Shown here piece by piece: positions 1,159 through 14,962 of a stretch of DNA of 14,962 nt. Source of the DNA: a virus (taxonomy: Duplodnaviria > Heunggongvirae > Uroviricota > Caudoviricetes); the IMG/VR virus record IMGVR_UViG_2529293000_000008. One strand, given 5' to 3'. How positions within the stretch are numbered: the stretch's first letter is position 1; the number at the start of each line of letters is the position of its first letter. The notes under the pieces are model-generated. The model was given only the letters and a program-made list of their open reading frames with translations, had not been told where the DNA came from and did not search any database. Made by a program: the position numbers and the translations under genes.

Positions 1159-2820
1159 TTACACCCCGCTAAATTCTTCCAGTTTCTGGCGGTGGCTGTC
1201 GCTTATATCAAAAGCAAAATCCTCATGCTCTGCCTGGAATGTACCAAACGCCATCAGCGCCGCCACGCTCGGGTCTATCTTGTTCGGTGATTTTTTCTTG
1301 TTCGGCTTGATATTGGCGTTCGCGTCACTCTGCATCACGACGTTACTCATCGACCAGGACAACACCGGATCGCCACGATGCACAATCACCCTGCGGTTAA
1401 CAAAAACTTCGAACGATTTCGCCGCCGGACTGAATCTGAGGTAGGTTTGCGGGAACGGCTCCACCTCAAAACCTGCCCCCTGTAATTGCGTTCTGAGATG
1501 CGTGGCGTTCCACGTATCAAAGCCCACCAGCCTGATATTAAATTTCTCCGCGTCCTGCATGATGTCATCTCTGATCCGGTCGTAATCAATGCAGTCGCCA
1601 GGCGTTGTGCGTATCCAGCCTGCTTTAGCCCACTGACGATAGATGGCGCGGTTTTTATTGGCGGGGTTCTGTAGCTGAAATTCCGGCAGATAGTGACGGG
1701 AAACCAGCATAATGGTTTTACCGACCGGAAAGGCATAGCACACGCTGGAAATATCGCTGGTTGATGATAAGTCCAGCCCCGCGTAACACTCCTGGCCGTG
1801 TAAATCTTCCTCCGTGAACGTTCCGGCACACTCAGCCCATGCGCCGTTACCCATCCACGGGGTAGCCCCCTGGCACCAGATATTAAATCGCTTTGTCATC
1901 ATCTCCACCCACTGCGACGGAATACCCCGCGCTTTCTGGATGGTTGAGGCCAGTTTTTCACGATCGACGGAAACATCAATATTAGGGTTCGCCTTTATCC
2001 ACATCGCCGGATCATCAACCTCGTTTTCGTCGTCCAGTTCGTAAATCAGTACAAAAATTGAATCGTTAACCTCTTCGCCGTCCAGGATCTGGCAGCAATA
2101 ATCATAGTGCTGCTTACAGGCTGAAACGACGTTGCTGCCTGATGTGGTAATGGCAAATAACAGCCCTTCGGGACGTGCGCCCATCCCCAGCTCAAGCGCG
2201 GAATAAACGCCGTTATCGGGGTGCAAGTGGTATTCGTCCACGATGGAAAGGCTGGGGTTTGTTCCCTCGATGGTTGCCGCTTTTGCTGCCAGCGGCTTTA
2301 ACAGGCTGTTGCTTTTCGGGTGTATCACCTTATGCGCCTGAATATTCACCCGCCTGCGTAACGGTCGGGATAAAAGGCACATCTGACGCGCATCATCAAA
2401 GACGATCCGCGCCTGGTCACGGCTCACCGCTGCGGTGTAGATATCCTGCTGACCGTTCTCCATAATCAGAAACCAGTTAGCCAGAATCGCGGCGGTCGTG
2501 GATTTCGCATTTTTGCGCGGCACTTCGATAAAGGCGCTCGTGTATTTGCGCCGTCCGGTGGCCTTAACCTTAAAGCCGAGGATGCACGCAAAGGCGAACT
2601 GCTGCCACGGCTCCAGCTCAATGGGTCTGCCACGCATCGGTCCTTTTACGTGCGGGCACACCCTGGAAAAGGCAATAAACCGCTCCACAACCTCACGATC
2701 GAACGTGTAAAGGGGGCTTTTAAGGTCCGAAAAGTACCGTTTAACGGCCTGTTTCAGCCGTTTACAGGCCGGAATTTTGCCCGTTTTTACGTCTTCTGCG
2801 TACTTATTCCAGGCGGTCAA
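1159..2820 (-). CDS. terL: Terminase large subunit (TerL)
   Basis: 553 aa; terminase-type deviant P-loop (PRKNAKST), size and overall pattern typical of TerL; TTG start at 2820 preceded by GAGGA; overlaps the TerS 3' end, consistent with translational coupling. Confidence 0.9.
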   Translation of the reverse strand: MTAWNKYAEDVKTGKIPACKRLKQAVKRYFSDLKSPLYTFDREVVERFIAFSRVCPHVKGPMRGRPIELEPWQQFAFACILGFKVKATGRRKYTSAFIEVPRKNAKSTTAAILANWFLIMENGQQDIYTAAVSRDQARIVFDDARQMCLLSRPLRRRVNIQAHKVIHPKSNSLLKPLAAKAATIEGTNPSLSIVDEYHLHPDNGVYSALELGMGARPEGLLFAITTSGSNVVSACKQHYDYCCQILDGEEVNDSIFVLIYELDDENEVDDPAMWIKANPNIDVSVDREKLASTIQKARGIPSQWVEMMTKRFNIWCQGATPWMGNGAWAECAGTFTEEDLHGQECYAGLDLSSTSDISSVCYAFPVGKTIMLVSRHYLPEFQLQNPANKNRAIYRQWAKAGWIRTTPGDCIDYDRIRDDIMQDAEKFNIRLVGFDTWNATHLRTQLQGAGFEVEPFPQTYLRFSPAAKSFEVFVNRRVIVHRGDPVLSWSMSNVVMQSDANANIKPNKKKSPNKIDPSVAALMAFGTFQAEHEDFAFDISDSHRQKLEEFSGV

Positions 2821-3160
2821 GCTCGTCCTCTTCTTCTGTTTCCGGTGGGTTTTTACGGCGGCTTATCGGGTCAAAACCGAGCAAGGAGGCCATTTTTATC
2901 ATCACCCTTTCAGCGTCTGATTTCGCGCTTAATGCGGGGTTTCTGCTCTCGCCGCCCTGACTGTTAACAATGCTGAACCCGCGCGCCGCAAGGTCTGCGA
3001 CGGCTTTCCGGTAAATGGAGTAGTTGACACAATACAGTTCCAGATTGCTCCAGTCGGCGGGGGTCAGGTCTCCCCGTTCCGCAAGCTGCCGCGATTTTTC
3101 CCGCCACTGCTTCACGGCGATGTCATCCAGGTAGGCGGGGGCTTTCGGTGGTCTTGCCAT
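2804..3160 (-). CDS. terS: Terminase small subunit (P27-family-like TerS)
   Basis: 118 aa, MARPPKAPAYLDD...LELYCVNYSIYRKA pattern typical of P27-family small terminase; ATG at 3160; lies directly upstream of TerL. Confidence 0.8.
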   Translation of the reverse strand: MARPPKAPAYLDDIAVKQWREKSRQLAERGDLTPADWSNLELYCVNYSIYRKAVADLAARGFSIVNSQGGESRNPALSAKSDAERVMIKMASLLGFDPISRRKNPPETEEEDELDRLE

Positions 3161-3282
3161 GCTTATTTTTCGTCAGATTATTTTTCAAAAAATTCCCGTG
3201 CATAAAAATTTGAGGAGGCGTTCGGTGCCCGGCGGGGTCGGGTTTGTCCTGAAAACGCCCCCCACCCCGCCATACAGCCTCA

Positions 3283-3465
3283 TCAGCGATTGCGGAAACA
3301 TTCCATAACCTCGCGGTCACGGTCGGTTAATCGCTTCGCTGTGATGCGTTCTGCGCGTCCTGACGCTTTATCTTTATGCCCTGTTTCCTGTGTCTTCCAT
3401 GCGTCACGCTGCCTTATAAGTCCACGGATAAGGCGGTTTTGTTCCCGCTCATTCATCAGCGTCAT
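3283..3465 (-). CDS. Possible small basic protein (about 60 aa) between HNH and TerS
   Basis: Internal ATG of the 3283..3687 ORF overlapping the HNH stop; Arg/Lys-rich; weak or no Shine-Dalgarno, so the call is tentative. Confidence 0.25.
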   Translation of the reverse strand: MTLMNEREQNRLIRGLIRQRDAWKTQETGHKDKASGRAERITAKRLTDRDREVMECFRNR

Positions 3466-3889
3466 ACATCCAGTTATTGCGGTTAGCGGCCCGTTCTTCA
3501 TCTTCACGAAATCCACCTGCGGCACGCTTGCTTTTTGTTGCCGGATCAAGCCATTTCGTTTTCTGGTTATGACACGCCTGACACAATGGCTGATGGTTCC
3601 ATTCGGGCCAGAAGAGAACATCATCGCCGCCATCGATGGGGATAATGTGATCCACCACCACGGCGGGCGTATATATCCCCTTCTCAAGGCATCGCACGCA
3701 TAACGGGTTTTTACTCAGATACATGGCGCGGTATTTGTCCCACTGTCTGGAGTACCCACGCGCGCGGCGGTGTCCTCGTCTGGCATCCTCTGCACGCCAT
3801 GCCGCCCGCCTGTGCTCCTCACACTTACCGGACTTAACGCGCCTGTTACAGCCTGGTTCTGTACATCGTCTTAATGGTTGCCACGGCAT
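3449..3889 (-). CDS. HNH endonuclease (terminase-associated)
   Basis: 146 aa with Cys-rich N-terminus (CTEPGCNRRVKSGKCEEH) and HNH core (DHIIPIDGG...NHQPLCQACHNQKT); sits immediately upstream of terS as in HK97-type cos packaging modules. Confidence 0.85.
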   Translation of the reverse strand: MPWQPLRRCTEPGCNRRVKSGKCEEHRRAAWRAEDARRGHRRARGYSRQWDKYRAMYLSKNPLCVRCLEKGIYTPAVVVDHIIPIDGGDDVLFWPEWNHQPLCQACHNQKTKWLDPATKSKRAAGGFREDEERAANRNNWMYDADE

Positions 3890-4182
3890 CAGTACACCCC
3901 CACATCACGGTAAGCCGTCCAGAGTGCGCCTATCGTCATGGGTACGCGCGTTTTTGCGTTATCCGCGACAATCTGGCGATTTTCATACAGGTGAGCGATA
4001 AACATCATGCAGCCAATCTTTATGGCTGGCGTGAACTCCAGCCCGTCATCAAAGCGCCTGCCTATGTGTATCTGGCACGCCTCAAGCGATGCGGCAATGT
4101 ATCCGCTGATTAACTGGTCTTCATCGTCGCCATCGATGCGGCAATGGAGTTTCACTTCTTCCAGGGTGATAAGTTCTGTCAT
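3889..4182 (-). CDS. Head-tail connector protein (gp6-like)
   Basis: 97 aa, MTELITLEEVKLHCRIDGDDEDQLISGYIAAS pattern typical of gp6-like connectors; ATG at 4182; its stop overlaps the HNH start by one base. Confidence 0.8.
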   Translation of the reverse strand: MTELITLEEVKLHCRIDGDDEDQLISGYIAASLEACQIHIGRRFDDGLEFTPAIKIGCMMFIAHLYENRQIVADNAKTRVPMTIGALWTAYRDVGVY

Positions 4183-4517
4183 TTTTCCGCGCCCTCACGA
4201 CAAAGAATTTCAAGGCGTGTCCTGGCGGCATCTGGCAGCGGTTGCCCGATGATATTCAGTACACGCCCCGCCAGCGGCCCCGTATTGACCTTTATCCGAC
4301 TGGTGGCGTTGATGTCCTTCCGGTAGCGTATCCATATCCTTACAGTTCCAGTCGCCAGCTCTGCACCTGATGAAATGGCCTCCTTGCTGCTGATCATGTT
4401 CACGCTTGCCCAGAGTGTGTGACCGTCCACCCACGTTTCGAGTATTTCGCCCGTCATGGCTCTGGTCTGTTTCAGGGTCTGAATCGTTACCCTGTCACGC
4501 AGTCGCCCTATGTTCAT
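4179..4517 (-). CDS. Head closure / head-tail joining protein (gp7- or SPP1 gp16-like)
   Basis: Start chosen at internal ATG 4517 (MNIGRLRDRVTIQ...) with a GGGAGA Shine-Dalgarno, overlapping the portal stop; IRYR and C-terminal pattern typical of head-closure proteins. Confidence 0.75.
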   Translation of the reverse strand: MNIGRLRDRVTIQTLKQTRAMTGEILETWVDGHTLWASVNMISSKEAISSGAELATGTVRIWIRYRKDINATSRIKVNTGPLAGRVLNIIGQPLPDAARTRLEILCREGAEK

Positions 4518-5725
4518 TCCGGTTTTTCTCCCTCGCTGATTTTTACTTCCTGTTTCCATGCCTGGCTGAACTCATCACCACCATCACGCGGTGACAGTCC
4601 TTCACGTTCGCGGGCTTCGTTCGGACACATAACGCCGGATTTGATGCCGCGCTCATAGGTGGCAAAGCGTTCGCCAGGTGTGGCCCGTAACAGGTCCGCG
4701 CTGTCAAACTCCACCTGATACCGGATACCAGGTACAGGCGAGGCCACCAGCAGGGCGTTTTTTATCTGCTGCTCAAAGTTCGCCAGCCACGGGCGCATCG
4801 TCATGGTGAGAAATGCGCGGCTTGCCTCGCTGAAATTGCTGTAGGTGCTGTTGCTGTATTCCTGCAAAAAAATCGGCGAGACGTTGAACATTCTGGCGAT
4901 GTCTTCAATGGTGAAGCGACGGGAGGCCAGCCATTCAGCATCCTGATTACTCATGCCCAGCTGCTGATAGCTCATACCCCCTTCAAGGATGGGCGTTTTT
5001 CCGGCGTTTCTGGCCCCTTTGTAGCGTTCCAGTGCGGCTAATGCCTGTTTGCCCTTCACGCCGTCCAGCCATTCGCCTGACGTGATAACCCCTGCCGCCA
5101 TCATGCCATCACGCATCACGCTCGCGCCGTGGCGTTGTTGGGCCAGCCCAAGCCCCAGCGATTCGCGGCAGATGGTTACAGGTGAGCGCCCCATAAAACC
5201 GTCATCCGTGGAGTAACGAAGGTGGAGAACCTCCCACGGTAAATAGTTGCGGGTGTTTCCGGTGTAGGCGTCAGTGATGCAGTAGCGCCAGTTATGCTCA
5301 CCTGTCTGCTCAACGTTCACCGACTGCGGCGGGTAAGGATGCAAAGCGACTGGAAAACCATCACGCCCCCACTGAATCACCGCATAAGCATTACCGTTTA
5401 ACAGGCAGTGGCGGATCATCATTCGCTTAAACTGGTAGGGGGTTTGCCATGCGTTCGGGCGCTCGTTGAGGATGTGATCGACCGGATGAGAATCAAGCCA
5501 CTCTCGGGCCTCCTTCCCCTTCTCATTGCGTACCAGGTACAGGTAACACGGCATGGTAGCCACCGCCTCAGAGATGACCGTGACGGCGTTCATGACGGCG
5601 GGCAGTGATTCCGCTGTCCCCGATGATACGTACTCACCCGCCCCCGTGTTCGATGTGCCAGCCAGCGCCATAAACTCATCAAGCGTCATGCTGCGCTGCT
5701 CTTTTTTTCTTCTGAAAGGCCACAT
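4514..5725 (-). CDS. Portal protein (HK97 family)
   Basis: 403 aa with the LLNGNAYA motif and overall HK97-family portal pattern; ATG at 5725. Confidence 0.9.
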   Translation of the reverse strand: MWPFRRKKEQRSMTLDEFMALAGTSNTGAGEYVSSGTAESLPAVMNAVTVISEAVATMPCYLYLVRNEKGKEAREWLDSHPVDHILNERPNAWQTPYQFKRMMIRHCLLNGNAYAVIQWGRDGFPVALHPYPPQSVNVEQTGEHNWRYCITDAYTGNTRNYLPWEVLHLRYSTDDGFMGRSPVTICRESLGLGLAQQRHGASVMRDGMMAAGVITSGEWLDGVKGKQALAALERYKGARNAGKTPILEGGMSYQQLGMSNQDAEWLASRRFTIEDIARMFNVSPIFLQEYSNSTYSNFSEASRAFLTMTMRPWLANFEQQIKNALLVASPVPGIRYQVEFDSADLLRATPGERFATYERGIKSGVMCPNEAREREGLSPRDGGDEFSQAWKQEVKISEGEKPE

Positions 5726-5726
5726 A

Positions 5727-6299
5727 TCACACCCCCGCTAAATCCGCCCACCAGCGGCGATTATCCGCACGCGGCATTTTTTCGGGGTGCTGCTCGTACA
5801 GGGAGCGGCGGGCCAGCTCCACGCCGGAATCAGGGTAAGCCGGTACGGATGTAACGGTAATTTCGTATAGTTCCGCCACCAGCACGGTGCGCACGCATGG
5901 ATCTGTTGTGGTATCCCATACATCCTTACGGGAACGAAAGCCAAAGCTCATGCCGGATATATCACCTCGTTTAACCAGTTCGATAACGTCGCGCCCTGTA
6001 CTGGTATCCGGTGGGGTCAGTTCAAAGCGTAACCCTGTTTCGTCCTCTTCCAGTTTCAGCGTGCCGGAACGGGTGCGCCCCAGTAACATGCTGTGGTCAT
6101 GCTCATACAGGCCGCGAACGTCATTACCCGCCGCAAGCCACTCAGTAAACGCCCCCCGCTGGAATTTTTCGTAAAACTCCCCCCATAGCAGTTCTGAAAG
6201 CTTATCCCAGCGAACAACGTAGCCCGTCAGCGTACCGGCTCCGCTGGTAGTGATTTCCGATGACCGGATTTCCATACTCTTCATAATTTTTTCACCCAT
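5727..6299 (-). CDS. Prohead maturation protease (HK97 family)
   Basis: 190 aa with G-x-L-x-GY, HDHS..LGR and GMSFGF motifs typical of HK97 prohead proteases; the true start may be the internal ATG at 6284. Confidence 0.9.
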   Translation of the reverse strand: MGEKIMKSMEIRSSEITTSGAGTLTGYVVRWDKLSELLWGEFYEKFQRGAFTEWLAAGNDVRGLYEHDHSMLLGRTRSGTLKLEEDETGLRFELTPPDTSTGRDVIELVKRGDISGMSFGFRSRKDVWDTTTDPCVRTVLVAELYEITVTSVPAYPDSGVELARRSLYEQHPEKMPRADNRRWWADLAGV

Positions 6300-6308
6300 A
6301 AAACACTA

Positions 6309-6328
6309 AAGGGGCTTTTAAGCCCCTT
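6309..6328 (-). terminator. Stable hairpin between the capsid and protease genes (possible attenuator)
   Basis: aaggggcttttaagcccctt forms an 8 bp GC-rich stem with a 4 nt loop; on the minus-strand RNA it is followed by UAGUGUUUU just before the protease start. Confidence 0.4.
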
Positions 6329-6338
6329 CTGTATGCTG

Positions 6339-7496
6339 TTAATCGTCGTCCTGTGGCAGTTCCAGAATCTTGATCGCGTTCGAATCCACCACGCCACCGC
6401 CTAAATATTTCTGCGTGAAAATTTTGATGAAGCCCGGCTCTGTGAGGTTGTCCGGTCTGGTGCGAACACCTGTTTCGTGATCAACAATGTAGTAACCGCG
6501 TTTGAAGTCACCCAGGGCAATAACGTTATCAGGCATAAACTCCAGATATTCGACCGGAAGGCCCAGCAACGTATCAGGATCACCCGCCTGTAAACGGTCG
6601 CGCCAGATGTAATCACCGTTCGCGTTCTTCACCTTCTGAAGTTTTGCCGCCGTCGTGGAGTTAACCACCCAGACCGCGTTTTTGCGGTATTTTTTACGTA
6701 ATGCAAATTTCAGGTCGATCAGCGGGTCCGCAGATGTCCACGCCAGAGATTCGGAAGGTTTAATTACCTGCAACGTACCAAAATCACGCTCTTTGTCGTT
6801 CTTCTCTGCACGGGGTACGGATAAAAAACCTTTTGCTTTTTTGTCACCGTCGCCCACAACCAGATCGCTTTCTTCGGTTTCCGTGAAGGTGTCGCCAATC
6901 TCACCCGTCAGCCATGAAAGGATGTCCACATCGGAAAAATCCACGATTTCCTGTGTGGTGCGCGGGTACGCATAGACCGGATACAGCTTAATGCTCACCT
7001 CGTTAATCTGCGGGGTGCTGGTCTGTTCGCGTGTCTTACCCTCTTCACCGTGGTTAACGGTCGCACCGCCAGCGGAAACAAGCTGCTTAAACTCGTTGCT
7101 GCTGATTTTCTTCACGGTACAGATGCGGCGCATGGTGGATTCATCCGTCAGCATTCGCATGATTTCGGTGTTCAGTTCGGGGATAACGGTATAACCACCA
7201 TCAGCGGGAACGCCTGTACTTAATGCGCGGGTTTCACCTGTCAGAATGTAGTTGCGTAGTTCTGCGGGGTCAGTGGTCTGGCTGCTTTTACCTGGCTTGC
7301 TGCGCTCTTCGTCTGCAATGGCTTCAAGGCGGGAAATGTCTTTATCGAGGGATTCAGCTTTAGCGCGTAATTCGTCAAATTTTGCGCCCTCAGCATCGTT
7401 AAGACTGCGGTTTTCTTTTTCCGCGTTCTCCAGCATGTCGCGCATCTGATTTTTAATGGCGGTTTTCTGCTGGCGTAATTCGATTATTCTCGGCAT
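6339..7496 (-). CDS. Major capsid protein (HK97 fold) with N-terminal coiled-coil delta/scaffold domain
   Basis: Start taken at ATG 7496 (MPRIIELRQQ...); the track ORF extends to a GTG at 7544; N-terminal charged coiled-coil region followed by capsid-like body. Confidence 0.9.
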   Translation of the reverse strand: MPRIIELRQQKTAIKNQMRDMLENAEKENRSLNDAEGAKFDELRAKAESLDKDISRLEAIADEERSKPGKSSQTTDPAELRNYILTGETRALSTGVPADGGYTVIPELNTEIMRMLTDESTMRRICTVKKISSNEFKQLVSAGGATVNHGEEGKTREQTSTPQINEVSIKLYPVYAYPRTTQEIVDFSDVDILSWLTGEIGDTFTETEESDLVVGDGDKKAKGFLSVPRAEKNDKERDFGTLQVIKPSESLAWTSADPLIDLKFALRKKYRKNAVWVVNSTTAAKLQKVKNANGDYIWRDRLQAGDPDTLLGLPVEYLEFMPDNVIALGDFKRGYYIVDHETGVRTRPDNLTEPGFIKIFTQKYLGGGVVDSNAIKILELPQDDD

Positions 7497-7575
7497 AAAA
7501 AAAGTCCTGGGGTTAAGTAAGGAACTCCAGGACGCGGCAAACACTCAACCGTTTTTCATAAGGAAATCAGTAATC

Positions 7576-7625
7576 GCACCGATCGTTTTCCCGCCTGGTA
7601 ATGAATATTGGCGAGCACATTAACA
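7576..7625. promoter_or_regulatory. Long inverted repeat in the region upstream of the capsid operon
   Basis: ttttcccgcctggtaatg (7576-7593) and cattaacaggcgggaaaa (7608-7625) are reverse complements with one mismatch, separated by 14 bp. Confidence 0.4.
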
Positions 7626-7754
7626 GGCGGGAAAATGGCCCCAGCGTCCTGGCACCACGGGCGAGAATAATCATGATTCAGGTCGGGTAAAATATGCCGT
7701 TCCGGTCAGCGAGCAACGTGGAACAACCACGAACAAATAATTTACAAAACATGA

Positions 7755-7777
7755 CAAAAAGCCGGATTGCTCCGGCT
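7755..7777 (-). terminator. Intrinsic terminator after the PerC-like gene, separating the early/replication operon from the head operon
   Basis: Minus-strand RNA forms agccgga-gcaa-tccggct followed by UUUUU; located 7 nt downstream of the stop at 7784. Confidence 0.5.
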
Positions 7778-7783
7778 GTGTGA

Positions 7784-8059
7784 TTATCTGTCCTGGTAAT
7801 TTCGCCATATTTCATCGCTTACACCATCTATACCCATTTCAGCATAAGTGCGATCTACTGCCTTTCTCAGGTCTCCGAAGTTATCCGGCGGCTCCGGTGG
7901 CTTCTGTGCCTTCCTGGAACATTCCAGCCGTCGCATCGTAACCTGATGCCGTTCCTTGTCTGTCTCCACCAGCAGCATGACTTCACCCCATCGCGCCGAC
8001 GCCCTCCGGTAAAAGCCTTTCGCCTCGAGTTCTTCCGCTATGCGGTCATGTACCATCGC
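7784..8059 (-). CDS. PerC-family-like small transcriptional regulator
   Basis: Start chosen at internal ATG 8059 with strong GAGGGGG Shine-Dalgarno right after the SSB stop; MVHDRIAEELEAKGFYRRASARWGEV resembles the PerC/Pch signature as I recall it (not searched). Confidence 0.5.
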   Translation of the reverse strand, partial: AMVHDRIAEELEAKGFYRRASARWGEVMLLVETDKERHQVTMRRLECSRKAQKPPEPPDNFGDLRKAVDRTYAEMGIDGVSDEIWRNYQDR

Positions 8060-9019: not shown

Positions 9020-10774
9020 TTATAAAAACGCGTCGCAATCGTCTGTTGTTATTGCGTTAGTCTGCGTTACTCCCTTAACTTTCCGCGTAATATATTCATG
9101 TCCGTAAACTTTCGCGGCTGGCTTCATAGCCTTGCCAAAGTCATTTACGTTTAGCGGTTTGCTCCTGCCTGCGTACGCCATAAACGCCAGATAGACGCGG
9201 TAAAGGCTGTTTCTGGTCGTGTACTTCACTGAATCGCCACCGCCGCCCATCATCAGGCCGCGTGCTTCCTCCAGAAAATTCAGGAACTGGCAAAACTCAA
9301 TAACCGGATCCGTCTGTTGCTTTATTGCCAGTGCTTCATCACCGTCACGCTGTTCAATGAGTAAAGCCCGTGCCTTTTCAGGGTCGGCAAAGTTCGCCAG
9401 CAAGCGGCGGATAATCACAGGGATTTCAGCCGCGATCTTTTCCGGTAGCTCCCTGTCTTTTTCTGCCTCGCTTACGATGTTATCGAACCGGAATATCACC
9501 CGACGACGTGCCACACCTCCGGCCCGTTCGGTGAATATCATCGGATTGTTATTGGTTGCCAGCACCACCGCCCTGATTACCGCCGTAAAACGCTTTTCAT
9601 ATTTCGGGTTAATTTCCACGGGGTCGCCGCCCGTGATTTTCTTGATGCCCGTTCCTTCGCCTGTATATTTCGGCTGGTCTGCCAGGACGATAAGACGACT
9701 CCCGACAACCTGCGCACGCCCACCAGCATCATCAAGCGATGTCATTTCAGCGCTTACCGTGTTCTGTTTCCCTGCCAGAAGGCTGGCTATGTGTGTGAAT
9801 GTACTTTTACCGCTCCCGCCGTCTCCGGTGGCCTCAATAAACATCTGCCAGTCGTACCGGTTCGCCATAATCATGTACAGCGCGGCACATATACGCATCA
9901 TCTTGCGCGGGTCTTTTCCGGCTGCGTGCTCAAGCCATTTATGAAAGTTTGGCGCGTTATCGCGGATGTTCTCCCCTGGTGCTGGTGGCGTGTACTCAAT
10001 GCCGTTGTGCGTGGTGATCCAGTTCTCCGGCGTGTGCGGGGAAAATTCCCCCGTTTTCAGGTCAAGCGCACCATTGGCGAACGGCAGCAAATCGCCGGAC
10101 GGCTCGCCCATTGGTTCGGCAATAACTTTTAACGCTTCCACGGCGTTATTGATTACGCGCTTGCTGAAAGTGGCCCTGTGCTCTGAATAGATCGCCACCA
10201 TTTCGCGGCTAAGTTCCATTGTGCTGACCGGACACCATACCCCGCCGCGCCATACGTGAACGATTTCACTTTCAGGATGTACGCAAACGCCATCAAAGCG
10301 ATCGGCAAGCAGCTGCGCGCGCTCACTGTCCGCCATCTGCGAAAGTTGCGCCTTTTGCTTTACCGGAAGCTCAATGACCAGACCATCAGAAAGATTCTGG
10401 CGCTCACGGGCCAGATATTCGCGCCAGTTCTCCACCTTCTGACCGTGCATACCCTCAGGATAAAAATTTGCATCCTGTACGCCTGCCGCCGCCAGCTTCT
10501 GGCCAATCGCCTTTATCATTACTGGCGCAAGATATCCGGCCCTGAATATGCGCACGGATTTTCTGCCTTCCGGCACAATTTGCAGCTTATCCAGTTCTGA
10601 TAACTGCTGCTCCCCAAGCCACACAGGAGGCTCATTATCTCCGGCCATACGCGCATCATGTTCCTGCCATTGTTTCGCGTGTGCCCAGGCATCACTACCC
10701 GCAAAAATAATGACTTCTGTTCCTTTGTGTTTTATGCCGCGTGACTGCTGTTTTACGTTCGGTGCCAGTTTCAT
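9020..10774 (-). CDS. Replication initiator: P4/D5-type primase-helicase (Pri-Rep)
   Basis: 584 aa with Walker A GDGGSGKST and a Walker B-like RLIVLADQP segment in the C-terminal half, as in P4-alpha/D5-like helicases; ATGA coupling with the upstream ORF; AGGGGT Shine-Dalgarno. Confidence 0.85.
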   Translation of the reverse strand: MKLAPNVKQQSRGIKHKGTEVIIFAGSDAWAHAKQWQEHDARMAGDNEPPVWLGEQQLSELDKLQIVPEGRKSVRIFRAGYLAPVMIKAIGQKLAAAGVQDANFYPEGMHGQKVENWREYLARERQNLSDGLVIELPVKQKAQLSQMADSERAQLLADRFDGVCVHPESEIVHVWRGGVWCPVSTMELSREMVAIYSEHRATFSKRVINNAVEALKVIAEPMGEPSGDLLPFANGALDLKTGEFSPHTPENWITTHNGIEYTPPAPGENIRDNAPNFHKWLEHAAGKDPRKMMRICAALYMIMANRYDWQMFIEATGDGGSGKSTFTHIASLLAGKQNTVSAEMTSLDDAGGRAQVVGSRLIVLADQPKYTGEGTGIKKITGGDPVEINPKYEKRFTAVIRAVVLATNNNPMIFTERAGGVARRRVIFRFDNIVSEAEKDRELPEKIAAEIPVIIRRLLANFADPEKARALLIEQRDGDEALAIKQQTDPVIEFCQFLNFLEEARGLMMGGGGDSVKYTTRNSLYRVYLAFMAYAGRSKPLNVNDFGKAMKPAAKVYGHEYITRKVKGVTQTNAITTDDCDAFL

Positions 10775-11070
10775 TTTTTACCCCTGAATCCTTTAATCAT
10801 GGTTTTCATCTTCTGAATATTGGCGCGTGCTTTCTCCCTGCTGGTGGGCACGTTACGCGGTACGGCCTGCACAAGAGAAAAATCACGGTCGAACTGATAA
10901 ACAGGCATCACGCAATCATATTCGTAGCCTTCACGACGGTAGGTTACGCGCCGTTCCTCCACGCCCTTAATCATTACCGTGCCGCCGTACTTATCGCGGT
11001 AAATATCACCGCGCATGAATTTAGTGCGAGTTTTGCCACTGGCAGTTAAGCCAGAATATTTAAGTTTCAT
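10771..11070 (-). CDS. Hypothetical protein (99 aa), translationally coupled to the primase gene
   Basis: ATG at 11070 with GGAG Shine-Dalgarno; its stop overlaps the primase ATG; no recognisable motif. Confidence 0.5.
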   Translation of the reverse strand: MKLKYSGLTASGKTRTKFMRGDIYRDKYGGTVMIKGVEERRVTYRREGYEYDCVMPVYQFDRDFSLVQAVPRNVPTSREKARANIQKMKTMIKGFRGKK

Positions 11071-11075
11071 TATTT

Positions 11076-11309
11076 TTATTCTCCGGTGTGGGGCGCTTTA
11101 TACTGGTCGTGTAATGTCTCTATTTCCTGCAACTCATTTATTACAGGCTCAAGAAGCGTTATTAATGCCGTGACAATCCTTGATTTCTGTTTATCACGTT
11201 CATTATCTCCAAGCGTTTCAAGACATATGCGCAATATTTCCAACATATTTTCACTGTGAGAAAGTGCAAGAAATGCGCGGTCTATTGTTTCGTGGTAAAT
11301 ATCACGCAT
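11076..11309 (-). CDS. Hypothetical protein (77 aa)
   Basis: ATG at 11309 with GGGGA Shine-Dalgarno; same strand and operon; no recognisable motif. Confidence 0.5.
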   Translation of the reverse strand: MRDIYHETIDRAFLALSHSENMLEILRICLETLGDNERDKQKSRIVTALITLLEPVINELQEIETLHDQYKAPHTGE

Positions 11310-11378
11310 ATTAATCCCCGTCCGTCGTTTTTCTTAAAATAACCTCTGTCACGAAATCAGCATAATCGGCGGCGATAT

Positions 11379-11531
11379 TCAGTACATCAAGCCCCGTTGA
11401 TTTATATTCTCTCGTGGAAAGTAAGAAAAAGCCGCTCTAATAAGCTCTGGCATTGACGAAAGCGCATCAGCCGCATCATCAGGAACGCCGGAAAATTCCT
11501 GTTTCAGGGAATTAAAACGATCATCACGCAT
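11379..11531 (-). CDS. Hypothetical small protein (50 aa), not in the supplied ORF track
   Basis: Hand-translated from the minus strand: ATG at 11531 preceded by AGGGGGG, overlapping the upstream stop by 8 nt; MRDDRFNSLKQEFSGVPDDAADALSSMPELIRAAFSYFPRENINQRGLMY then TGA. Confidence 0.35.
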   Translation of the reverse strand: MRDDRFNSLKQEFSGVPDDAADALSSMPELIRAAFSYFPRENINQRGLMY

Positions 11532-11889
11532 GTTTACCCCCCTGAATGACCTGATAACCGCAACTGGTCAGCAACTCGATAAATTCCGGCAGTGTGCCGA
11601 AACAGCAATCATCACGCAGCCGTTCGCAGGATACCTCGACGCCGTTTTCGTAGTGACTCACCATACATCCGGTAAAATGCAGATCATCATCGTGATGGCT
11701 CGTTGACGGCTTAATCAGTCGCGCACGTTCCGCCAGTTCCAGCAATGCTTCAACGCTTCCGGCAATTGCACCATCCGGCAGGTGATAATTACGCACTATG
11801 CGCCCGTTCTCCACATTGACCAGCAACTGCCCGGTAAATTTCTCGTCAAACTGAATGCTGTTAAGGTCAGAAATTGACAGGTTATGCAT
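11524..11889 (-). CDS. Hypothetical protein (121 aa)
   Basis: Start chosen at ATG 11889 (MHNLSISDL...) with AGGAGG Shine-Dalgarno, overlapping the upstream ORF by 8 nt; no recognisable motif. Confidence 0.55.
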   Translation of the reverse strand: MHNLSISDLNSIQFDEKFTGQLLVNVENGRIVRNYHLPDGAIAGSVEALLELAERARLIKPSTSHHDDDLHFTGCMVSHYENGVEVSCERLRDDCCFGTLPEFIELLTSCGYQVIQGGKHA

Positions 11890-12106
11890 GGTGCACCTCC
11901 TGCACATCAGCCATGATAATTTTTCCGGCCTTATCCAGTGCCTGATCGGCTTTTAGCTGCACAAATGCTAAATAATGGAAGATGCATTCTGATTCTCTGG
12001 CTGCGTGTTTATGCGCCCTGTCAGCAATAACAGAAATATCAATAAGCGCGTGCATCAGCGTAGTGAGCGCGGCGGCTGCTGCGTCCGGTGTGGTTTTATT
12101 GCACAT
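11882..12106 (-). CDS. Hypothetical protein (74 aa)
   Basis: ATG at 12106 with AGGGGG Shine-Dalgarno; overlaps the upstream ORF stop. Confidence 0.5.
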   Translation of the reverse strand: MCNKTTPDAAAAALTTLMHALIDISVIADRAHKHAARESECIFHYLAFVQLKADQALDKAGKIIMADVQEVHHA

Positions 12107-12302
12107 GGCCTACCCCCTGGCGAATACGGGCAGCGAATACCATCACGCAGCCATCAGGAGATTGCTGACGCGCTTCCTGTTCGCTGGTGGCCTCGATGGT
12201 AATCACGCGCGGTTGTGCCGTGCTCAGGGCGATAAAACGCCAGATGTATTTATTCAGGTCGTGCGAATCCCGCCCTTGCGGGTGTGTGGTATGATTTCTC
12301 AT
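12096..12302 (-). CDS. Hypothetical protein (68 aa), first gene of the small-ORF operon
   Basis: 3' portion of the long 12096..13124 track ORF; internal ATG at 12302 with GAGG Shine-Dalgarno; the upstream part of the track ORF crosses the promoter/operator region and is judged spurious. Confidence 0.45.
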   Translation of the reverse strand: MRNHTTHPQGRDSHDLNKYIWRFIALSTAQPRVITIEATSEQEARQQSPDGCVMVFAARIRQGVGHVQ

Positions 12303-12399
12303 AGCTACCTCGATACTTTCGCTATCGTTGGTGGTTAGAAGCCCCGTTACTGCTCCTACAGTGCGGGGTTTCGTCGTTTCTGTGCCTTTCATCAACAAG

Positions 12400-12480
12400 G
12401 TGTAAGACACAATGTAAAACAATGGTGTCTTACACGTCAACCCTTCAAAATATTTTTTTTTCGTGTATATTGTCTTACAC
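12400..12480. promoter_or_regulatory. Divergent promoter region with three operator-like GTGT-N3-ACAC sites
   Basis: GTGTAAGACAC at 12400-12410, its reverse complement GTGTCTTACAC at 12425-12435, and tTGTCTTACAC at 12470-12480; a T-run and TATATT lie between sites 2 and 3; sits between minus-strand and plus-strand operons. Confidence 0.55.
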
Positions 12481-12501
12481 CAAAAACATGAGGGGTTAAA
12501 C

Positions 12502-12681
12502 ATGGCAACGGGTCCAAAGAATGCAAAATCACAATCTGTAACTGCACGTATTGCCCATGAAATTATTGAAGGCATGGAGAACGTGAAAGAAGAAGGCGAA
12601 AGCACGGGACAGTTTATAAACGCAGCCATGCGCGGCGAAATCAAACGCCGCCAGCGCCGCAAGGCCAAAGAACCAGAGTAA
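12502..12681 (+). CDS. Small DNA-binding protein, likely ribbon-helix-helix (CopG/Arc/MetJ-like) regulator
   Basis: 59 aa; ATG at 12502 with GAGGGG Shine-Dalgarno 6 nt upstream; SVTARIAHEIIEGMENVKEEGESTGQFINAAMRGEI fits a beta-strand, helix, G-x-S/T turn, helix RHH layout; basic C-terminal tail; opposite strand to the rest of the island. Confidence 0.5.
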   Translation: MATGPKNAKSQSVTARIAHEIIEGMENVKEEGESTGQFINAAMRGEIKRRQRRKAKEPE

Positions 12682-12738
12682 TCACCATCAGCGCCGTGGT
12701 GTAAGGTATTACGGCGCATTGCTATGCAGGACAACACA

Positions 12739-12912
12739 ATGACCGATAAAGAATTGACCAAAACATTATCACCGGCACGGAAAAGACGGCGCAGAAAGAT
12801 AGAACATGAATCAGAAAGATTCGCGCCATGTGCTTTTGCCCTTGAGCAATTCCTTAAAGAGTACAGGGAAAAGCGCTCATTGCAGGTATGGCAACGAACT
12901 GAACCAGACTGA
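12739..12912 (+). CDS. Hypothetical small basic protein (57 aa), second gene of the plus-strand operon
   Basis: ATG at 12739 with weak AGGA Shine-Dalgarno; contains a KRRRRK stretch; followed by an intrinsic terminator. Confidence 0.35.
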   Translation: MTDKELTKTLSPARKRRRRKIEHESERFAPCAFALEQFLKEYREKRSLQVWQRTEPD

Positions 12913-13009
12913 TTGCATTGCCCACCAGCCTGATAGCGGCTATCATCCCCGTGCTTATGTTTGGGATCACACACACAAACGGCGCAGCGGGTTATCTGTT
13001 CAGAAAGGC

Positions 13010-13037
13010 GGCTCCATTTCGGGGCCGCTTTTTTTAT
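13010..13037 (+). terminator. Rho-independent terminator of the plus-strand regulatory operon
   Basis: gcggctcc-atttc-ggggccgc hairpin (8 bp stem with one G-U pair) followed by TTTTTTT. Confidence 0.6.
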
Positions 13038-13181
13038 GCCTGAAAAACCCCAATTTTGTGGTTTTCCAGTCTCACCAGGGCGAACGAATCCCCGCCCACG
13101 TTCTGGCGTATATTCAATCTTCATGGTTATAGCTCTGTGTTCAGATGATTGATGTGTGGCGGCTGTGTGCCGCCAGCGTGA

Positions 13182-13370
13182 TTAATGAACTGCCTTGCAG
13201 CTATCCTTCCAGGCCAGAACCTCGGATAAAGACCAGCCAACGGAACGACCGCCAAGTTTACGACGTGATGGGAATTGTCCGGCCTTTTCCAGGCGGTAGC
13301 GGCATGAGCGGCTAAGGCCTGTTAGCTTTTCGCATTCTTTTTCACGTATAAACCGATCAGTGCTTAACAC
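13182..13370 (-). CDS. alpA: AlpA-family transcriptional regulator / excisionase-like protein
   Basis: 62 aa; LTGLSRSCRYRLEKAGQFPSRRKLGGRSVGWSLSEVLAW matches the AlpA-family HTH pattern; GTG start at 13370 with AAGGGGG Shine-Dalgarno. Confidence 0.85.
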   Translation of the reverse strand: MLSTDRFIREKECEKLTGLSRSCRYRLEKAGQFPSRRKLGGRSVGWSLSEVLAWKDSCKAVH

Positions 13371-13652
13371 TATTGCCCCCTTTCGTTTCTTAAAGAGTTA
13401 TTTCGTGTTCTATTGCGTTGGGATGTGTCTGATTGTGTCAGGATGATTCAGAGTTGGCAAATGTTGAGGTCGTATGGTTTACAGAAACAGGAATAATCAG
13501 GATAAAATCATTTAAATTCATGTTAATACAAAGGCATAAAATATTGTTTCATGCCTTTTTTATCGCTATTTAAAGAGTGATTCGCTAGTGTATAAAAAAC
13601 CAGTAACACATTAAAAATCAGCTACTTATAAATCCGTACACTTTTTCGCCTC

Positions 13653-13727
13653 TTGTTCGTAGTTGTTCCGCATTGTTGCTCATTGTTGCATGTTGTATCT
13701 GTTCGCATATCCAGTATGCGCATACTG
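13653..13727. promoter_or_regulatory. Helically phased TTGTT repeats plus a 16 bp perfect palindrome between int and alpA
   Basis: TTGTT at about 13653, 13663, 13674, 13684 and 13692 (near 10 bp spacing), including tandem cattgttgc at 13671-13690; palindrome CAGTATGCGCATACTG at 13712-13727, 18 nt downstream of the int stop. Confidence 0.4.
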
Positions 13728-13744
13728 AAAAAACACGAAAAAAA

Positions 13745-14962
13745 TTATTTTCTTCTGGCTACTGGTAGCGTGGTTACGTTTTCATGTGTTCCCGCCAGTA
13801 TCCCTAACCGCTCCGTCCACATATCCAGCGCATTGCGTTTAGCATCCAGATAACGGGAATGATTATAAACTCGCTGCATTCCTGGCATCTGATGACCTGT
13901 AAGCTGCTCCACGACATGCGGATCAACGCCTAAATCGTTCAGCATGGTTGTAAAGGTGCGCCGGATGTCATGCAGTGACCAGTGAGGATGATTAAGCCTC
14001 CTGTGCGCTAATCTTCCATACTGCGATACGCTGGCCTCCTGTTTCGCTTCCCCCAGCAATAAGCCCGTGTGCCTGTTCTGCTCCACCAGCTGCGTGACGA
14101 ACGGCAGGATCGCTTCCGGTATGGGCCGGAATATTGCGACCTTCGTTTTGCTGTGCTCCTTCGGAACGGTCCATAGCATTTCCGTAAAATCCCACTCCCC
14201 GATCTCCGATAGCCTCAGTTCTACCGTCCTGGCTCCGAAGACAATCAGGAGGCGGATTAACGCGACGTAGTAAGGGGAAAATATTTTTTTGTCCAGTGCC
14301 TGCAATAATTCGCCAAGTTCTTTGTTACTTAAGACACGTTCGCTTATATCCGGTTTTTTCCCAACGTCCGCCACGTTCAGATCGTCCAGAACGTTGCTGA
14401 TTGCATAGCGCCGCCTACGGCAGAACTTAAGCGCCTGTTTGCACGCCTGTAGCACGAATCCGGCAGTAACAGGCGTTCGCTTTGCCACCTGGTCAAAACA
14501 GGCCAGCCAGTGCCGTAGCTCGCATTTATCCAGCGGCATAGCACCAATCTGCTGTATTACGTGATTATTAAGTCGCCTTTTCAGGGCGATATAATCCACG
14601 CGGTTTTCCTTTACGTAATACTCAAGCCAGTAGGTGAGCGCATCGCCAACCGTTACGGGCTTTAACGCTTCCTGTACGGTGTAATTCATCTCATGACGTG
14701 GATTTTTCCCCTCAGCCAGCCATGTGCGACACTGTGCGGCTTTTTCCCTGGCTGCTTTCAGGCTCAGATCAGGATAACTTCCCAGCTTAATGCGTTCGGG
14801 TCGTGTCTCCCTTCCCGTTCCGGCCCTGTATGTGAAATACCAGGTCAATTTCCCTGATGTTAAATATTTCACGCTCAGGTTTCCGCCATCACTATAAAAC
14901 GTGTTTTTCTCCGCTGGCTTACCATGAAGTTTCCTTAGCAAGGTATCGCTCAGTTTGTTCAT
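13745..14962 (-). CDS. int: Tyrosine recombinase / integrase (P4-like)
   Basis: 405 aa; N-terminal arm-binding-like region (LTSGKLTWYFTYRAG...LGSYPDLSLKAAREKA) and C-terminal catalytic region with HDIRRT and RVYNHSRY (His/Arg/Tyr signature); start codon lies at the window edge. Confidence 0.92.
   Translation of the reverse strand: MNKLSDTLLRKLHGKPAEKNTFYSDGGNLSVKYLTSGKLTWYFTYRAGTGRETRPERIKLGSYPDLSLKAAREKAAQCRTWLAEGKNPRHEMNYTVQEALKPVTVGDALTYWLEYYVKENRVDYIALKRRLNNHVIQQIGAMPLDKCELRHWLACFDQVAKRTPVTAGFVLQACKQALKFCRRRRYAISNVLDDLNVADVGKKPDISERVLSNKELGELLQALDKKIFSPYYVALIRLLIVFGARTVELRLSEIGEWDFTEMLWTVPKEHSKTKVAIFRPIPEAILPFVTQLVEQNRHTGLLLGEAKQEASVSQYGRLAHRRLNHPHWSLHDIRRTFTTMLNDLGVDPHVVEQLTGHQMPGMQRVYNHSRYLDAKRNALDMWTERLGILAGTHENVTTLPVARRK

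Follow-up and report, generated by a model that had tools for sequence, protein, structure and literature searches.

The 14,962-nucleotide stretch of DNA analyzed here (IMG/VR record IMGVR_UViG_2529293000_000008, hereafter the window) carries between positions 1,159 and 7,496 a set of head and packaging genes that can be identified, with a probability of about 0.93, as the capsid and packaging module of an EcCIEDL933-type capsid-forming phage-inducible chromosomal island (cf-PICI) residing in the chromosome of Escherichia coli, the order of the genes being the fixed layout of that clade. The genes, all on the minus strand, follow one another as capsid, S78 protease, portal, head closure (Hc1), head-tail adaptor (Ad1), HNH endonuclease, a 60-aa open reading frame (ORF), small terminase (TerS) and large terminase (TerL). 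This order has already been published and is a known hallmark of cf-PICIs; its presence in the window confirms a known element and is no discovery. Proteobacterial cf-PICIs have been described as starting with capsid, protease, portal and connectors, followed by hnh-terS-terL, and phage and PICI modules as having "different genetic organisations" (Alqurainy et al., bioRxiv 10.1101/2022.09.08.507074). The cf-PICI gene list serves as a search criterion in a 2025 follow-up paper, and the organization of 969 cfPICIs was called "very conserved" in the SatelliteFinder paper. The initial annotation of the window, made from its letters, had suggested that the order could be a signature for the satellite family; this holds for the proteobacterial clade, where it is already published and used, and does not extend to the Firmicutes cf-PICIs, which are ordered otherwise.

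Identity of the element and conservation of its layout

The window is 100% identical to the chromosome of E. coli AST216 and 98.7% identical to that of CFSAN061761, in which the island is ~15 kb long and flanked by two tqsA fragments. Among 5426 complete E. coli genomes, 412 contain the module at a coverage of at least 80%, and among the matches listed those that cover it fully are 98.8%-100% identical. The capsid protein of the window is identical, at 385 of 385 residues, to PDB 9GYI, the EcCIEDL933 capsid, which forms T=4 particles of 47.5 nm for a genome of 15.5 kb (9GYI depositors' paper). Identity with the EcCIEDL933 prototype is presumed from the sequence of the capsid protein in PDB 9GYI.

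The gene content of the window also fits this type of island. It encodes a complete integrase at one island end, an AlpA regulator, a D5-type primase, a single-stranded DNA-binding protein (SSB) and a PerC-family regulator, and all of its long ORFs lie on the minus strand. Tail, holin and endolysin families were found in none of the scanned window ORFs, several small ORFs matching nothing at all. What defines the proteobacterial cf-PICIs, namely an island of ~10-18 kb with int, AlpA and primase, its own head and packaging set, no tail or lysis genes and the capsid-first order, is thus found in the window. An HK97-like tailed phage, as an intact or defective prophage, was rejected on account of the different gene order and the lack of tail genes. 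An RcGTA-like gene transfer agent was likewise rejected, since int, alpA, a primase, HNH and TerS are encoded in the window and tail genes are not; the only link to RcGTA is a distant capsid similarity (E 3e-46).

The head and packaging set is complete, as all eight families score above the Pfam gathering thresholds with matching PHROGs (Table 1), and the eight functions proposed by the initial annotation are upheld by both databases. Its list of eight genes lacked the 60-aa ORF, which overlaps the HNH stop by 17 nt and is conserved in many relatives, as judged by tblastn. The Pfam and PHROG scan of this ORF gave no match; by numbering from capsid gene 1786, it probably corresponds to EcCIEDL933 gene 1792. 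Each of the nine ORFs is intact and free of internal stops, as had been claimed for the genes then listed. The coupled overlaps that had also been reported exist at six of the eight junctions, which abut or overlap (protease/portal, 1-nt gap; portal/Hc1, -4; Hc1/Ad1, -4; Ad1/HNH, -1; HNH/60-aa ORF, -17; TerS/TerL, -17), and are missing from two true gaps, one of 39 nt between capsid and protease, which holds a hairpin, and one of 122 nt between the 60-aa ORF and TerS, which holds the likely cos site. Similarly, a Shine-Dalgarno sequence had been attributed to every gene, and on inspection of the junctions neither TerS nor the annotated start of the protease showed an evident one. The protease may really start at 6284, where an in-frame ATG has GGAG upstream. 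The start codon of TerL is TTG.

By extension from the prototype, for which this has been shown, the island would use its capsid, protease and portal proteins to build T=4 procapsids of the HK97 fold for itself, close and adapt them with Hc1 and Ad1, and package its ~15-kb cos DNA by means of an HNH, TerS and TerL of its own; only tails would come from the helper phage. EcCIEDL933 depends on its helper for tails only, and Hc1 and Ad1 fix tail specificity in cf-PICIs. Mutation of each EcCIEDL933 module gene abolished transfer, with hypothetical gene 1792 as the exception, its mutation leaving transfer severely reduced (bioRxiv 10.1101/2022.09.08.507074).

The conservation of the order was surveyed in 138 satellite loci, 58 from IMG/VR and 80 from genomes, of ~60 species of Enterobacterales, Orbales and Pasteurellaceae. 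The satellite order was found, with no exception, in every locus long enough to be informative, a conservation far beyond chance. The order has been passed on vertically as the layout of the proteobacterial cf-PICI clade and does not stem from a recent rearrangement. A collection of 50,697 phage records was also searched with the capsid, protease, portal and TerL proteins. Capsid matches of at least 58% identity were limited to the records of vB_KppS-Ant (16.5 kb) and Pmp8 (15.3 kb), a Salmonella fragment of 3.8 kb and the final 16 kb of a Klebsiella record of 106 kb, and all of them share the satellite order. With the four proteins, the records matching at 55% or more are all satellite-sized, except for a chimeric one.

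The nearest true phages (Pseudomonas VW-6S and D14E, Yersinia YeP1), with capsid identities of at most 40%, are organized as (HNH)-TerS-TerL-portal-protease-capsid-Ad1-Hc1, followed by tail genes. The canonical TerS-TerL-portal-protease-capsid order that the initial annotation had used for comparison was thus confirmed in the closest true phages (loci L005-L007). The satellite order in real phages was ruled out, every inspected true-phage relative being canonical, and the concern that it might be standard in ordinary tailed phages of this group was not borne out. The best true-phage relatives differ from gene to gene and are all distant (34-43% identity). They are Pseudomonas phages for the capsid (37-40%), Enterococcus phages for the protease (43%), Ralstonia and Klebsiella phages for the portal (34-36%) and the Brucella phage BiPBO1 for TerL (36%). 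This pattern fits an ancient origin and is weak evidence for mosaic assembly.

The window element shares its int-alpA-primase backbone, a size of ~15 kb and the lack of tail and lysis genes with EcCIEDL933 and the proteobacterial cf-PICIs (bioRxiv 10.1101/2022.09.08.507074; He et al., bioRxiv 10.1101/2025.02.11.637232), and it has the nine-gene module of the EcCIEDL933 clade in the same order, in a different strain. Firmicutes cf-PICIs have the same lifestyle and a similar minimal gene set; in contrast, those of Bacillus, Clostridium and Staphylococcus and those of Lactococcus and Enterococcus place portal-protease-capsid first or hnh-terS-terL first, and their origins are independent (Alqurainy et al.). 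Classical PICIs and P4-like satellites have in common with the window the integrase, an AlpA-type regulator, the primase and helper dependence, but they encode no capsid, portal or TerL, and they remodel or redirect the capsid and terminase of the helper.

Table 1. Features of the window, in the order in which they are met along the minus strand
Feature	Position	Strand	Evidence or remark
Tyrosine integrase, complete	13745-14962		Arm-DNA-bind_3 + Phage_integrase; int at one island end
AlpA regulator	13182-13370		PF05930 5e-18
342-aa ORF	12096-13124	minus	between alpA and replication genes; no Pfam or PADLOC match
D5-type primase	9020-10774		D5_N/DUF5906/Pox_D5
PerC-family transcriptional activator	7784-8056	minus	PF06069 7e-45; immediately upstream of capsid/packaging unit
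Terminator-like hairpin + T-run AGCCGGAGCAATCCGGCTTTTT	7756-7777	minus	directly after PerC-family gene; 7 pairs, 5 GC
Structured capsid 5' leader, about 165 nt	7497-7665	minus	P1 7635-7658; P2 7586-7635; small hairpin 7565-7584; P3 7504-7535
Major capsid protein, HK97 fold, 385 aa	6339-7496	minus	PF05065 Phage_capsid 2.6e-61; first module gene
GC-rich hairpin GAAGGGGCTTAAAAGCCCCTTT + short T tract	6308-6329	minus	between capsid and protease genes
Prohead serine protease, Peptidase_S78	5727-6299	minus	PF04586 7e-48; phrog_80
Portal protein	4514-5725	minus	PF04860 9e-91; phrog_12
Head closure Hc1, Phage_HCP	4179-4517	minus	PF05521 3e-23; phrog_25
Head-tail adaptor Ad1, gp6-like Phage_connect_1	3889-4182	minus	PF05135 5e-12; phrog_40
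HNH endonuclease	3449-3889	minus	PF01844; phrog_144 1e-44
60-aa ORF, function unassigned	3283-3465	minus	RefSeq annotation
Putative cos region, non-coding	3161-3282	minus	conserved blocks + vB_KppS-Ant record ends
Small terminase TerS, P27 family (Terminase_4)	2804-3160	minus	PF05119 1e-23; phrog_83
Large terminase TerL, ATPase + nuclease domains	1159-2820	minus	PF03354 + PF20441; phrog_9 2e-179
93-aa protein	864-1145	minus	phrog_1561; final gene before island end

The putative cos region and the displaced head block

HNH endonucleases are packaging cofactors for HK97-type cos terminases, and in the window the gap downstream of the HNH gene and the 60-aa ORF, directly upstream of terS, has the features of a cos region. 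It contains GGGGTGGGGGGCGTTTTCAGGAC (3246-3268) and CTCAAATTTTTATGCACGGGAATTTTTTGAAAAATAAT (3177-3214). The gap upstream of terS has two blocks, GGGGTGGGGG..TTTCAGGAC and CTCAAATTTTTAYGCRCGG.AATTTTTT, and the cos blocks are kept in essentially all of 91 distinct terS-upstream sequences, the exceptions being the chimeric locus L003 and the mis-extracted locus L066. The linear record of vB_KppS-Ant, an induced satellite, begins at terS and ends just past the small ORF, and its ends flank a 72-nt segment present in all relatives (window 3174-3245). Most likely, cos is located in the gap that separates the 60-aa ORF from terS, with a putative cleavage zone at 3174-3245. Cohesive ends have been reported from experiment for cf-PICIs.

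Because the putative cos site sits inside the module, the HNH-TerS-TerL part would not be permuted, the succession of HNH, cos and TerS-TerL being ordinary for HNH-dependent cos phages such as D14E. The packaged genome would then read terS-terL, int, the replication genes and finally capsid-protease-portal-Hc1-Ad1-HNH. The non-canonical part of the layout is the head block only, which stands before hnh instead of after terL, and in which the capsid-protease-portal and Hc1-Ad1 sub-blocks are reversed on the same strand. The initial annotation had presented the order of the whole module as permuted, which stands for the moved and internally reversed head block and, given the presumed cos position, not for HNH-TerS-TerL. 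Circular permutation was considered as a cause and rejected on reasoning, as a rotation explains why terS-terL come last and not the same-strand reversals; nor can a single inversion yield the same-strand reversal of sub-blocks.

The comparison with the HK97-like HNH-dependent cos phages (Pseudomonas VW-6S and vB_PaeS-D14E, Yersinia YeP1 and the helper HK106) places these similarities and differences side by side. These phages encode the same protein families as the window, with HNH directly upstream of TerS-TerL in both, and both have a GC hairpin after the capsid gene. In contrast, their portal-protease-capsid-Ad1-Hc1 genes are downstream of terL and precede the tail genes, whereas the head block of the window is upstream of hnh and internally reversed. 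The proteins share 28-40% identity, and the satellite capsid is T=4, not T=7.

RNA structures around the capsid gene and the meaning of the order

The terminator-like hairpin that directly follows the PerC-family gene is predicted to mark the upstream boundary of the capsid/packaging transcription unit. Between this hairpin and the capsid gene lies a structured leader, whose fold has a z of -4.07, 0 of 200 shuffles being as stable. Its P3 hairpin is terminator-like, includes the AGGA Shine-Dalgarno motif and is followed by a U7 run (7497-7503) that abuts the capsid ATG. The segment CCAGGACGC of P1 (7644-7652) is able to pair instead with the 5' arm of P3 (7527-7535), and the energies of the terminator and alternative forms are comparable (-65.2 and -57.3 kcal/mol, respectively). 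P3 would occlude the ribosome-binding site; in leaders of the E. coli class it would also be an intrinsic terminator. P1, when paired to P3 at its 5' arm, may work as an anti-terminator or anti-sequestor.

Capsid leaders fall into at least three sequence classes with one P1-P2-P3 architecture and the alternative P1/P3 pairing, as found in the window, in L002 (12136-12295) and in 38 other loci. Class B leaders, from other genera, differ in sequence and have the same three-hairpin architecture. In 29 class B sequences, 97% of the cells are paired, 0 of 500 shuffles reach the observed score, and compensatory changes affect 8 of 9 pairs of P2 and 3 of 10 pairs of P1. For the alternative P1-P3 pairing of class B, there is one compensatory pair, in three sequences, which coincides with a compensatory change inside P1. 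The class B covariance model matches only class B leaders, always just 5' of the capsid gene. It did not find the class A leader of the window, which is thus analogous in architecture and not demonstrably homologous. A search of Rfam gave 0 matches at E<=1 for the window leader and noise only for class B. A leader peptide was rejected, since several relatives have ATA in place of the ATG of the conserved TTTTTCATG box and the reading frames are not the same from one class to the next.

On the other side of the capsid gene, the GC-rich hairpin is a candidate partial terminator or 3' mRNA stabilizer. Counted by per-sequence folds, 72 of the 79 distinct relatives have a hairpin at this place, and its stem comes in 38 variants. 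No consensus fold was obtained by RNAalifold from a MAFFT alignment, in which the stems were out of register by one column. The canonical-order phages L005-L007, L063 and L065 likewise show a strong hairpin immediately behind their capsid gene, and thus the hairpin is ancestral and moved along with the gene. The module may form one co-directional unit that starts after the upstream terminator with the capsid gene first. That gene, bracketed by a switch-capable leader and a 3' hairpin, would be followed by six tightly coupled genes, cos and the coupled terS-terL pair. The leader and the post-capsid hairpin are undescribed for cf-PICIs in the literature searched, and the inner cos position, the post-capsid hairpin and the switch-like leader could matter to work on the stoichiometry and timing of satellite gene expression.

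Several points weigh against the reading of the window as an EcCIEDL933-type module in the fixed layout of its clade. The window is not EDL933 itself; its 100% match is strain AST216. The survey reaches relatives with capsid identities of 54-100%, short of the more distant proteobacterial cf-PICIs. The vB_KppS-Ant record is without the 72-nt segment between its ends, so that its termini bracket the cos cleavage site and do not define it. Finally, we infer the position of cos, the single transcription unit and any regulatory role of the leader and hairpin.

As to how the layout arose, we lean slightly toward a frozen historical accident, in which the order dates from the assembly of the ancestral PICI's genes from phage sources, has been kept by gene coupling and the fixed cos, and has no function of its own. 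Each of the three cf-PICI lineages has a layout of its own and a separate phylogenetic origin (Alqurainy et al.), no intermediate arrangement was found in the 138 related loci, whose sampling ends at ~54% capsid identity, and the differing, distant best phage relatives of each gene and the impossibility of a same-strand reversal by one inversion or circular permutation also agree with it. However, at 30-43% identity differing best matches are weak evidence for a mosaic origin, strict conservation over ~60 species is also expected under selection, and the conserved RNA structures that flank the first gene suggest that its position has been exploited.

Selection for the order is a possible but less probable origin. 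In that case, the capsid-first position, a regulated leader and a leaky hairpin would produce a descending gradient of expression. The order tracks the falling copy numbers in a T=4 particle, from ~235 capsid subunits through the protease and 12 portal and connector subunits to the catalytic HNH and terminase. The terminator-like P3 with its U7 right before the capsid ATG and an alternative pairing of similar energy, the hairpin and short T tract that follow the capsid gene in most distinct relatives, and the predicted translational coupling of the downstream genes at their overlapping junctions are all consistent with such a gradient. Moreover, a second, independently derived group, that of Bacillus, Clostridium and Staphylococcus, also has its head genes first, ahead of the terminase, according to the description by Alqurainy et al. 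Yet the gradient is a prediction, the post-capsid hairpin is found in canonical-order phages as well, the Lactococcus and Enterococcus cf-PICIs open their operon with hnh-terS-terL, canonical phages reach the same ratios with the terminase first, and tight coupling would freeze any order once set. That the order itself tunes protein ratios, as the initial annotation had suggested might be the case, is unproven. The place of the capsid gene at the start, the terminator-like leader before it, the hairpin resembling a leaky terminator behind it and the coupling of the downstream genes would agree with this idea, but cf-PICI lineages that are ordered otherwise also function. A frozen lineage trait is somewhat more likely than an adaptive gradient, and the two are not mutually exclusive.

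A more specific proposal, which is speculative and unlikely to hold as it stands, is that the capsid-first order is functionally tied to the leader and the inherited post-capsid hairpin, which would gate and then grade the expression of the module, the leader being a new class of riboregulator that times capsid production. That the module is the decaying, scrambled remnant of an HK97-like prophage after loss of its tail and lysis genes is highly improbable: the homology of its head and terminase genes to phage genes and the lack of tail and lysis genes in the window agree with that origin, but the nine ORFs are intact and mostly coupled, 412 E. coli genomes carry near-identical full-length copies, the order is conserved across many genera alongside the int-alpA-primase PICI backbone, and the identical capsid protein of EcCIEDL933 forms functional T=4 particles. 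The proposal of the initial annotation that this is an organized alternative layout rather than decay is well founded on the intact, mostly coupled genes, the E. coli copies and the identity of the capsid with that of the characterized EcCIEDL933.

Accessory genes and related loci

The PerC-family protein encoded upstream of the module varies from 39% to 100% identity across relatives, and this activator could act on the module or on host genes. The accessory region between alpA and the primase gene varies among island copies; the segment with the 342-aa ORF differs from that of the otherwise near-identical CFSAN061761 island, which makes it a variable accessory slot. A PADLOC search of the accessory ORFs found no defense systems. 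The position of the 93-aa phrog_1561 gene is another such slot, with the gene present or absent among relatives. In vB_KppS-Ant (L002 2036-4333), this slot after terL is occupied by a 765-aa gene labeled "tail length tape measure protein"; probably the label is wrong, or the gene is unusual cargo.

The layout cleanly separates satellites from prophages, and its practical value lies in annotation. A number of GenBank "phage" records are cf-PICI satellites or fragments thereof, namely LR881103 (L002), OR544139 (L004), OR544138, OR850982 and positions 90.6-106.5 kb of PQ569648 (L003). The mislabeled satellites are vB_KppS-Ant, Pmp8, the S.Kent 1-2-1 fragment and the tail of P12620-1, and the Pmp7 record is probably also a satellite. 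The 106-kb Klebsiella "phage" P12620-1 ends in a whole satellite joined at the start codon of terS, which suggests a chimeric assembly.

Locus L047 contains a tandem duplication (9360-14564), with capsid, protease, portal, a C-terminal capsid fragment, protease and portal in succession; it may be real or an assembly artefact. Two Rfam families were found near satellites, the int-alpA RNA in the Pasteurella satellite L004 (7318-7383; 46 bits) and the C4 antisense RNA near a Xenorhabdus satellite (L076 17818-17904; 70 bits); neither is present in the window at the Rfam gathering score. Xenorhabdus genomes (loci within L076-L120) carry many copies of this type of satellite, with at least five loci in X. 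anantnagensis, at least six in X. innexi and at least four in X. mauleonii.

In two independent IMG/VR contigs, a related cf-PICI lies inside the large-terminase gene of an HK97-like prophage (L048 ~2084-17081 and L052 ~2185-18362). The phage TerL is interrupted near residue 200, and a 12-nt repeat is found at both junctions, ATATCATGAGCA in L048 and TATCACGAGCAT in L052, within the Walker-B (DEYHEH) codons. In these loci, the satellite appears to use the terL gene of the prophage as its attachment site.

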